Source: a virus (lineage: Duplodnaviria > Caudoviricetes). Taken from it: a stretch of DNA of 64,000 nucleotides. The stretch lies in IMG/VR virus record IMGVR_UViG_3300042256_000025; one strand, written 5' to 3'. Below are positions 1 to 1,048 of the stretch, piece after piece; position 1 is the stretch's first letter; every line of letters starts with the position of its first letter. The notes beneath the pieces are model-generated. The model was not told the origin of the DNA, ran no database searches, and saw only the letters and a list, made by a program, of their open reading frames with translations. A program made the translations under genes and the position numbers.

Positions 1-325
1 AATCCTTAGCATTGGGTAGGTCGTACCCTAGACTACGGCAGTACTCTGCAGCGGTAGCCCCAATATTACCCTGTCCATCGTTAATGGAGTTATAAGTAGG
101 ACTCGTCAGTACGTCAGTATTGTACTCGGAAGAGTTTGGATCAGTAGGGGTAGTAGTAGTACCACTGCCACTCGTCCAGTTTGGCAGACTAGTATCAGTA
201 CCGTATAAACCCCACATTTTAGTCGTACGCTGTGAAGCTGGAGCTACTACTAACCAATCTCCTCCATCCTGTCCAAAGATAATCCCTCCATCTGGCAGTA
301 CACTACCAATCTCTAATTTACTCAT
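1..325 (-). CDS. Stand-alone CLec/DUF1566-like domain protein, probable DGR-target paralog (3' end outside window)
   Basis: Not in the ORF track. ATG at 325 with upstream AGGAG reads MSKLEIGSVLPDGGIIFGQDGGDWLVVAPASQRTTKMWGLYGTDTSLPNWTSGSGTTTTPTDPNSSEYN..., nearly identical to the C-terminal domain of 23444..24514. Nucleotides 1-127 are identical to 607-733. Confidence 0.85.
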   Translation of the reverse strand, partial: MSKLEIGSVLPDGGIIFGQDGGDWLVVAPASQRTTKMWGLYGTDTSLPNWTSGSGTTTTPTDPNSSEYNTDVLTSPTYNSINDGQGNIGATAAEYCRSLGYDLPNAKD

Positions 326-403
326 CTGTATCTCCTATTACCTAGGTTTAGTGTAGCCTATCATAACGATAGGCTACTATGGTGAAAATACAAAACTCTG
401 CTA

Positions 404-1048
404 TTAACTGTCTTTAGGAATTCTCTTAAAAGGCACTACCCAGCCACTGCAGTACTTGTAGCTGGCGCCCCAATTCCCATTGCCAAAGTACAGGAGCCAG
501 GCGCTGAGGGAATTGCCCTCGGTAGAGGACCAGACGCACGCTGTGGGTAGGTTACCCGTACTATCCGCGGCGTTAATCTGAGCCCGATTATTGTAAATAA
601 GCTGCAAATCCTTAGCATTGGGTAGGTCGTACCCTAGACTACGGCAGTACTCTGCAGCGGTAGCCCCAATATTACCCTGTCCATCGTTAATGGAGTTATA
701 AGTAGGACTCGTCAGTACGTCAGTATTGTACTCTGAGCTATTGGGGTCGCTCGTTTCTGGACTACTACCTATGTTTGGAAGACTCGTATCGGTACCGTAG
801 AGTCCCCACTCCTTTTGCGCATGTAGTGAAGCCGGGGCTACTACAAGCCAATCTCCATTATCCTCTCCAAATACAATCCCTCCATCCGGAAGGATTGATC
901 CAATAGACATGCCCGTTACTGTAAAAGGTACTGCTGTAGACCATTGTGATAATGTACCAGTAAAGCCCTCGTACCTAATACTAGCATAGACAGTACCATC
1001 ATTTAAAACGACTCCTTTCTGACTAAGATCAATCTTTATATCACTCAT
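404..1048 (-). CDS. N-terminally truncated Mtd-like protein with CLec-type variable domain (DGR target)
   Basis: C-terminus VWSSTEGNSLSAWLLYFGNGNWGASYKYCSGWVVPFKR. The N-terminus matches only the end of the Fn3-like domain of 23444..24514. RBS AGGAG. Confidence 0.85.
   Translation of the reverse strand: MSDIKIDLSQKGVVLNDGTVYASIRYEGFTGTLSQWSTAVPFTVTGMSIGSILPDGGIVFGEDNGDWLVVAPASLHAQKEWGLYGTDTSLPNIGSSPETSDPNSSEYNTDVLTSPTYNSINDGQGNIGATAAEYCRSLGYDLPNAKDLQLIYNNRAQINAADSTGNLPTACVWSSTEGNSLSAWLLYFGNGNWGASYKYCSGWVVPFKRIPKDS
429..544 (-). repeat. DGR variable repeat VR1
   Basis: Aligns without gaps to the five other VRs; differences are concentrated at codon positions 1-2 of NNC/NNT codons. Confidence 0.85.

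Follow-up and report, generated by a model that had tools for sequence, protein, structure and literature searches.

VR-bearing lectin-fold genes of a phiKZ-like jumbo phage and the distant DGR cassette to which they probably belong

The DNA analysed here, hereafter the window, is a stretch of 64,000 nucleotides corresponding to genome positions 44866-108865, minus strand, of a linear virus record of 195,544 bp (CheckV completeness 71%); window position w is genome position 108866 - w, and genome positions carry the prefix g. The interval 1-544 at its left edge contains the 5' 108 codons of a 189-aa gene, a 78-nt hairpin and leader, and the VR end of a 214-aa gene. The first is a stand-alone C-type-lectin-fold gene (2..325, minus strand; the full gene, 189 aa, is at 541-1110 of contig L015), which matched Lcl_C and phrog_4245 and whose repeat, VR-H, lies 103-227 nt beyond window position 1 (g108968-109092). 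As the original prediction had stated, the minus-strand cluster leaves the left edge mid-gene, ORF 2..325 being open there. The intergenic segment (326..403, minus strand) comprises a hairpin, a conserved leader and a ribosome-binding site, and has a duplicate upstream of the next gene, at 1049-1110; the 19-nt leader was found only at 332-350 and 1056-1074 (expected 0.01). It is followed by the 214-aa lectin-fold gene (404..1048, minus strand) with VR-G (422-546).

The cluster extends on the minus strand to position 4208. The gene at 1409..2356 (315 aa) carries VR-F (1979-2103) in mid-gene, with an N-terminal lectin fold, no stop after the VR and a C-terminal phrog_839 / T4_Y16D-like domain; VR-E (2625-2749) and VR-D (3804-3928) lie in lectin-fold genes of 161 aa (2487..2972) and 152 aa (3750..4208), respectively. 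These three genes have their lectin fold at the N-terminus and stay open past the VR for 190, 45 and 20 codons, respectively; in canonical DGR targets the stop comes directly after the VR. The orthologue of gene 2487-2972 in relatives has 409 aa. ORF 2988-3341, considered as a further lectin paralogue on a weak word match (3072-3086), was ruled out at 20% identity.

Lcl_C matches were obtained in all targets, each below the cut-off. For the 214-aa protein, the AlphaFold model (pLDDT 73) had the C-terminal domain of Legionella Lcl as its best fold match (TM 0.69 normalised to the target), followed by C-type lectins. The targets are predicted to carry a C-type lectin fold, the VR lying within the lectin-fold target.

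The lectin cluster is located between conserved replication and nucleotide-metabolism genes, and its flanks are 91-94% identical between the window and L024 (an ERZ1673962 contig). Left of the window edge, the 189-aa gene runs to its end and is followed by a lectin gene of 134 aa, whose repeat, VR-I, is degenerate, and by small ORFs; beyond these, going left, thymidylate synthase, DHFR and an RNase H-like gene were found. Gene number and gene lengths in the lectin cluster differ between related phages (L024 and L041, the latter a JGI 3300036546 contig), and the cluster therefore appears to be a gene-turnover hot spot.

The original prediction had reconstructed a TR from the consensus of the VRs, found neither this TR nor an RT in the window, and suggested that both may lie in a cassette just left of position 1. 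The repeats themselves are real: the six VRs of the window align without gaps, and two conserved VR words matched 8 and 7 times where 1.6 and 1.7 matches, respectively, were expected, counts that none of the shuffles reached. With a single VR as query, ten sites were located across the record, and an eleventh came from a search of higher sensitivity; the TR is among them. Both missing elements do lie outside the window: RVT_1 matched the 195,544-bp record at one place only, g176896-177576 (the RT protein scores 1.7e-18), and the sole A-rich repeat copy is at g176550-176674.

These two belong to a cassette at g174465-177816, 65.6-69.0 kb left of window position 1, which has the BPP-1 order target-avd-TR-RT and lies on the strand of the minus-strand cluster; order, strand and side are those predicted. 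It begins with a fibre-like target of 431 aa (g174465-175760, with VR-A at g175624-175748), after which come hairpins and an intrinsic terminator. Avd (g175986-176390, 134 aa) is separated by a spacer of 159 nt from the TR (g176550-176674, plus strand; 125 nt, 42 adenines), and the RT (g176683-177816, 377 aa) begins with a GTG codon 8 nt after the TR, directly downstream of it; the terminal GGAGA of the TR can serve as ribosome-binding site for the RT. The 134-aa start of Avd is supported by the position of the terminator, inside the longer ORF first called for this gene, and by an exact look-up. Avd matched phrog_3206, 'Avd protein of DGR' (1.2e-7), NF033474 (8.5e-7) and bAvd (8e-4), all Pfam and NCBIfam scores being below the curated cut-offs. 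The RT contains LPIGNLLSQ, of the [LIV]GxxxSQ type of motif 4, and YVDD, in agreement with the YxDD motif that had been expected next to the TR. Among solved structures, the RT is closest to the 8ub7 reverse transcriptase (7.5e-31, residues 11-360 aligned), which we take to be BPP-1 bRT. A structured RNA in the avd-TR spacer was considered and rejected, as the 159 nt fold no better than shuffled sequence (z = -0.85), and an Rfam search of the cassette gave no match. An exact TR search in IMG/VR found nothing; a search with the A-masked VR pattern found one viral and one metagenome contig only (L023 and L024), relatives at about 94% identity.

What failed in the original prediction was the location. 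Instead of adjoining position 1, the cassette lies 67.7 kb to the left of it and has its own adjacent target; a TR present at a distant locus refutes, by the rule given with the prediction, the location only. Read codon by codon, the reconstructed TR agrees with the actual one at 117 of 119 bases; the ambiguous TTY codon is TTT, and one predicted AAC is GGC. TR codons are AAC or AAT wherever the VRs vary, apart from this GGC codon, to which belong the two bases of the kind that was to count against the prediction, non-A at variable positions. The VR consensus alone had predicted the template to within one codon, and the missing TR and RT do exist.

Nine VRs compared with the TR have 161 mismatches at its 42 adenines and 52 at the 83 other bases (p<=2.4e-4 for each VR); 36 of these adenines are changed in one VR or more. 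That VRs differ from the TR at adenines only was borne out for VR-A (15 A mismatches) and VR-C (20), neither of which has any non-A mismatch; the others do have non-A mismatches, with A and non-A counts, respectively, of 13 and 2 in VR-B, 22 and 4 in VR-G, 17 and 5 in VR-D, 17 and 8 in VR-F, 18 and 9 in VR-J (in the gene at the left end of the record), 18 and 10 in VR-H, and 21 and 14 in VR-E. In VR-I, adenines are not favoured at all (14 of 42 A sites and 23 of 83 non-A sites differ).

The VRs also differ in their cis elements. VR-A, VR-B and VR-C match the TR up to CCGGAGA at the IMH, and GC hairpins of -27 to -47 kcal/mol lie directly 3' of them. VR-F has kept the IMH and has no adjacent hairpin, and VR-D, E, G, H, I and J have an altered IMH and/or no adjacent hairpin; in VR-G the IMH-like 3' end is changed from CCG to TAA. 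Comparison of the hairpin modules (window 24503-24580, window 26423-26500 and L014 5749-5850) revealed that those downstream of VR-A and VR-B share a 24-nt palindrome and a second hairpin, and that those of VR-A and VR-C share a GGGCTTGCCC...GGGCTGCCC hairpin. Because hairpin modules are common to VR-A, B and C, duplication of the target 3' ends seems to have carried their cis elements along.

VR-B and VR-C belong to two fibre-like targets on the plus strand of the window. The gene at 23444..24514 (356 aa) has a shared N-terminal fibre-like region followed by the lectin fold, and its VR-B (24378-24502) lies 92 kb from the TR, with a 24-nt palindromic hairpin immediately 3' of it. The gene at 25403..26434 (343 aa, or 328 aa as called from 25448) gave a weak Mtd_N match; its VR-C (26298-26422), at 94 kb from the TR, has a strong hairpin after it.

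Further assemblies of this phage were obtained through exact look-ups of proteins encoded nearby. Two of them, compared over window positions 21701-28381, show 46 and 53 differences from the window; 36 and 42 of these, respectively, are within VR-B and VR-C, and the rest form a patch at 21830-22103; outside VR-B and VR-C, the flanks 22104-28381 are identical between these assemblies. Of the variable columns in VR-B and VR-C, 49 of 51 fall on TR adenines, and the remaining two come from the TTC AGC in the VR-B allele of the window; the VR-B alleles of other assemblies have no non-A mismatches and identical flanks. VR-C was present as three alleles in three assemblies, with all 25 variable columns on TR adenines. 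At the cassette, g174386-177990 of another sample has 13 differences, all within VR-A. At the protein level, 3 alleles were found for the VR-A target, 7 for the VR-B target and 6 for the VR-C target (six full-length in its 90% cluster, five aligned); all eight differences between alleles of the VR-A target are inside the VR, as are most of those of the VR-B and VR-C targets. Since VR-A, VR-B and VR-C change between assemblies at TR adenines and at hardly any other positions, and the TR itself does not change, homing would work in trans over 92-94 kb. By this comparison of assemblies, the TR found here evidently feeds VR-B and VR-C, which are remote targets on the opposite strand and apparently active.

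Two side observations concern this region. The patch 21830-22103, within ORF 21639-22469, has about 10 substitutions between strains, mostly transitions, 2 of which change the protein; as the changes are mostly synonymous and not adenine-specific, it looks like ordinary recombination or polymorphism in the tail region. In L034 (JGI 3300042277, a 1.8-kb contig), the VR-A allele of L046 (JGI 3300042272) is joined to the downstream flank of VR-B, and for that reason L034 was left out of the VR-B allele argument; the join could be a chimera formed during assembly across the hairpin module that the targets share, or a true recombination between targets.

The small stand-alone lectin genes would be duplicated target 3' ends, written by the present TR or by an earlier version of it. 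Those at 1-4208 look older or dormant: with an altered IMH, no adjacent hairpin and 4-23 non-A mismatches, the small genes would now be poor or dormant targets, as VR-G and VR-H may be. They could instead be ordinary fast-evolving paralogues that inherited their TR likeness from a duplicated fibre 3' end and are not current DGR substrates, which we consider possible, if rather doubtful. The altered IMH and missing adjacent hairpin of VR-D, E, G, H, I and J and the lack of adenine bias in VR-I would suit such an origin, as would several cases of stability. Three further same-strain assemblies carry an unchanged VR-D, and VR-D, VR-E and VR-F are identical in every same-strain assembly compared, a comparison that leaves out strains with other VR-B and VR-C alleles; an IMG/VR search with the flank pattern of the small-lectin cluster found none, and exact look-ups of the ligase and of the 117-aa gene returned the same strain or more distant phages only. 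VR-J is identical in several Logan assemblies. The A-site pattern of VR-E is retained in the diverged relatives L041 and L042, and because it is kept in these more distant phages, VR-E is probably a fossil VR.

Ordinary paralogues are harder to reconcile with VR-F, VR-J and VR-G. Orthologues of VR-F in two phages related at about 94% differ at 16-22 of 42 A sites (38-52%) and at 4-8 of 83 non-A sites (5-10%), with flanks that differ by about 20%; this concentration at A sites indicates that VR-F was written after the lineages of these relatives split. The VR-J cluster has three members, and P0029 differs from the VR-J of the record only at A-site codons; the size of a 90% identity cluster is uninformative for such short proteins, in which VR changes alone can exceed 10% of residues. 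VR-G has 22 A mismatches against 4 non-A mismatches.

The one codon at which the reconstructed TR was wrong also divides the VRs. The TR reads TTT GGC at this place, and so do VR-G and VR-E; VR-B, F, H, I and J read TTC AGC, which adenine mutagenesis of the present TR cannot yield. For VR-B, the TTC AGC (repeat positions 62-63) is that of the window's allele, four other alleles reading TTT GGC, and two of the seven VR-B protein alleles have Ser at this codon; the pattern points to gene conversion by a paralogue or to a TR that is polymorphic. In related DGRs whose RTs are 52-60% identical, the TRs read TTC AGT or ATG AGT at the homologous codon. Related TRs (RT 44-60% identical) were tried as an arbiter between AAC and GGC and found too diverged for this, giving a hint of an ancestral AGY. 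An older TR with an adenine at this codon would explain the AAC of the predicted consensus.

A second or earlier TR reading TTC AGY, now elsewhere or lost, might accordingly have served the small lectin genes of the minus strand, both those at window 1-4208 and the two past the edge. The TTC AGC common to five VRs, the readings of the related TRs and the Ser in some VR-B protein alleles all fit such a template, and about 4 kb of a 199,512-bp contig of this phage are absent from the 195,544-bp record. We nevertheless regard a second template as improbable: a single RT and a single A-rich copy of the repeat were found in the 195.5 kb, three further assemblies have an unchanged TR, VR-G and VR-E have the codon of the present TR, and the missing 4 kb would, by phiKZ synteny and from two extra lectin proteins, be largely the shell gene and lectin genes.

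The carrier was assigned on three features of the nucleus-forming, phiKZ-like jumbo phages (Chimalliviridae), namely a phiKZ-type major capsid protein, a split non-virion RNA polymerase and a PhuZ-like tubulin. The capsid protein shares 29-40% identity with its counterparts in jumbo phages of Vibrio, Erwinia, Serratia and Pseudomonas; phiKZ gp55, which is part of the non-virion RNA polymerase, has a homologue in ORF g387-1640 (4.8e-60); and a tubulin-like gene lies at g187417-188490 (match of 32 bits for a cut-off of 33). By its capsid, RNA polymerase and tubulin matches, the carrier is a phiKZ-like jumbo phage. Exact look-ups found the same proteins on contigs of 199,512 bp and 198,546 bp, and the proteins shared with these longer contigs imply that about 4 kb are absent from the record. 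A tblastn search with phiKZ gp54, chimallin, gave no match in the 195,544-bp record, which is without those 4 kb or so of the longer contig. Since homologues of gp50 and gp52 are at its right end and that of gp55 is at its left end, gp54 would, by phiKZ synteny, fall in the gap between the record ends.

The 335-aa gene after the gp55 homologue (g1735-2742) has faint NUMOD1 and HNH_3 matches; in phiKZ, gp56, an HNH endonuclease, likewise comes after gp55. The record begins within a conserved DLQLIYNN stretch of the VR-J gene, and several independent assemblies break in or beside lectin genes (record ends: g1-200 and g194430-195544): the 198.5-kb contig stops about 60 nt short of VR-G, and several contigs stop at VR-C. 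Two lectin proteins, P0032 (188 aa) and P0035 (195 aa), are on the 199,512-bp contig and absent from the 195,544-bp record. VR-like segments number 10 in the record and probably twelve in the full contig.

In conclusion, we consider that the VRs of the window belong to one canonical DGR of a phiKZ-like jumbo phage, with its cassette outside the window (probability about 0.9). By analogy with BPP-1, the avd-TR-RT transcript would be copied into cDNA by RT and Avd, random bases would enter the cDNA opposite template adenines, and the cDNA would then replace any VR with a matching 3' end (IMH), ideally one with a stem-loop just after it. A much bolder picture, which we think unlikely as a whole, would make this one DGR of a nucleus-forming jumbo phage a genome-wide diversifier of about 12 lectin-fold genes, its targets including stand-alone and N-terminal lectins among replication and nucleotide-metabolism genes. 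The small ones would then be hypervariable intracellular binders rather than fibre tips, for example against host defence or rival-phage proteins, and reverse transcription and homing would have to proceed within the phage nucleus or be brought into it.

The system found here resembles the DGR of Bordetella phage BPP-1 (mtd-avd-TR-brt) in gene order and in having an Avd-like gene, in an RT whose closest solved relative is that of BPP-1 (8ub7, 7.5e-31) and which has the SQ and YVDD motifs, and in a TR rich in AAY codons with adenine-specific changes. In both, a lectin-fold fibre protein carries the VR at its C-terminus, one protein here giving a weak Mtd_N match, and a stem-loop directly follows the VR, here VR-A, B and C. 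The BPP-1 genome has about 42 kb, and its DGR a single target. In contrast, the host phage here is phiKZ-like and of about 200 kb, with one TR for ten VR-like segments in the record, at least two apparently active targets are 92-94 kb from the TR, and the TR ends 8 nt before the RT start, which leaves no free TR-RT spacer of the BPP-1 kind.

Multiple or remote targets are known from cellular DGRs, in Treponema denticola, Thiohalocapsa PB-PSB1 and cyanobacteria (PMC5758913, PMC10907252). As in those, one TR and RT would act here in trans on several duplicated lectin-fold paralogues, and the degree of diversification differs among targets (PMC5758913; PMC10907252); unlike in these cellular systems, all targets here travel in one virus genome. 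For phage-associated DGRs, Wu et al. found that non-adjacent targets are nearly all within 50 kb of the RT, and phage targets more than 100 kb away were not expected (PMC5758913). Among the deposited phage matches listed, the closest RTs are those of small temperate Burkholderia, Pseudomonas and Shewanella phages (41-44% identity over about 90% of the length), Burkholderia phage Magia being an example of these DGR carriers; unlike the phage studied here, they have genomes of 42-57 kb. No jumbo phage was among the best 12 RT matches listed, and the 431-aa target protein had no match among deposited phage records. DGR-type lectin domains were absent from the 224 jumbo phages of a 2021 survey (PMC7824862), and our full-text literature search found no published account of a DGR in jumbo or phiKZ-like phages.

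A canonical DGR is thereby documented in a phiKZ-like jumbo phage, and the rewriting of fibre-like genes 92-94 kb from their template, as read from the allele comparisons, would exceed the limit of about 50 kb seen for phage-associated DGRs (PMC5758913). If the phage builds a nucleus, it would be a natural setting in which to study where DGR cDNA is made, and where homing takes place, with respect to the replicating target DNA. Compared with BPP-1, the mechanism and anatomy of this DGR are ordinary; its carrier and its scale are unusual.
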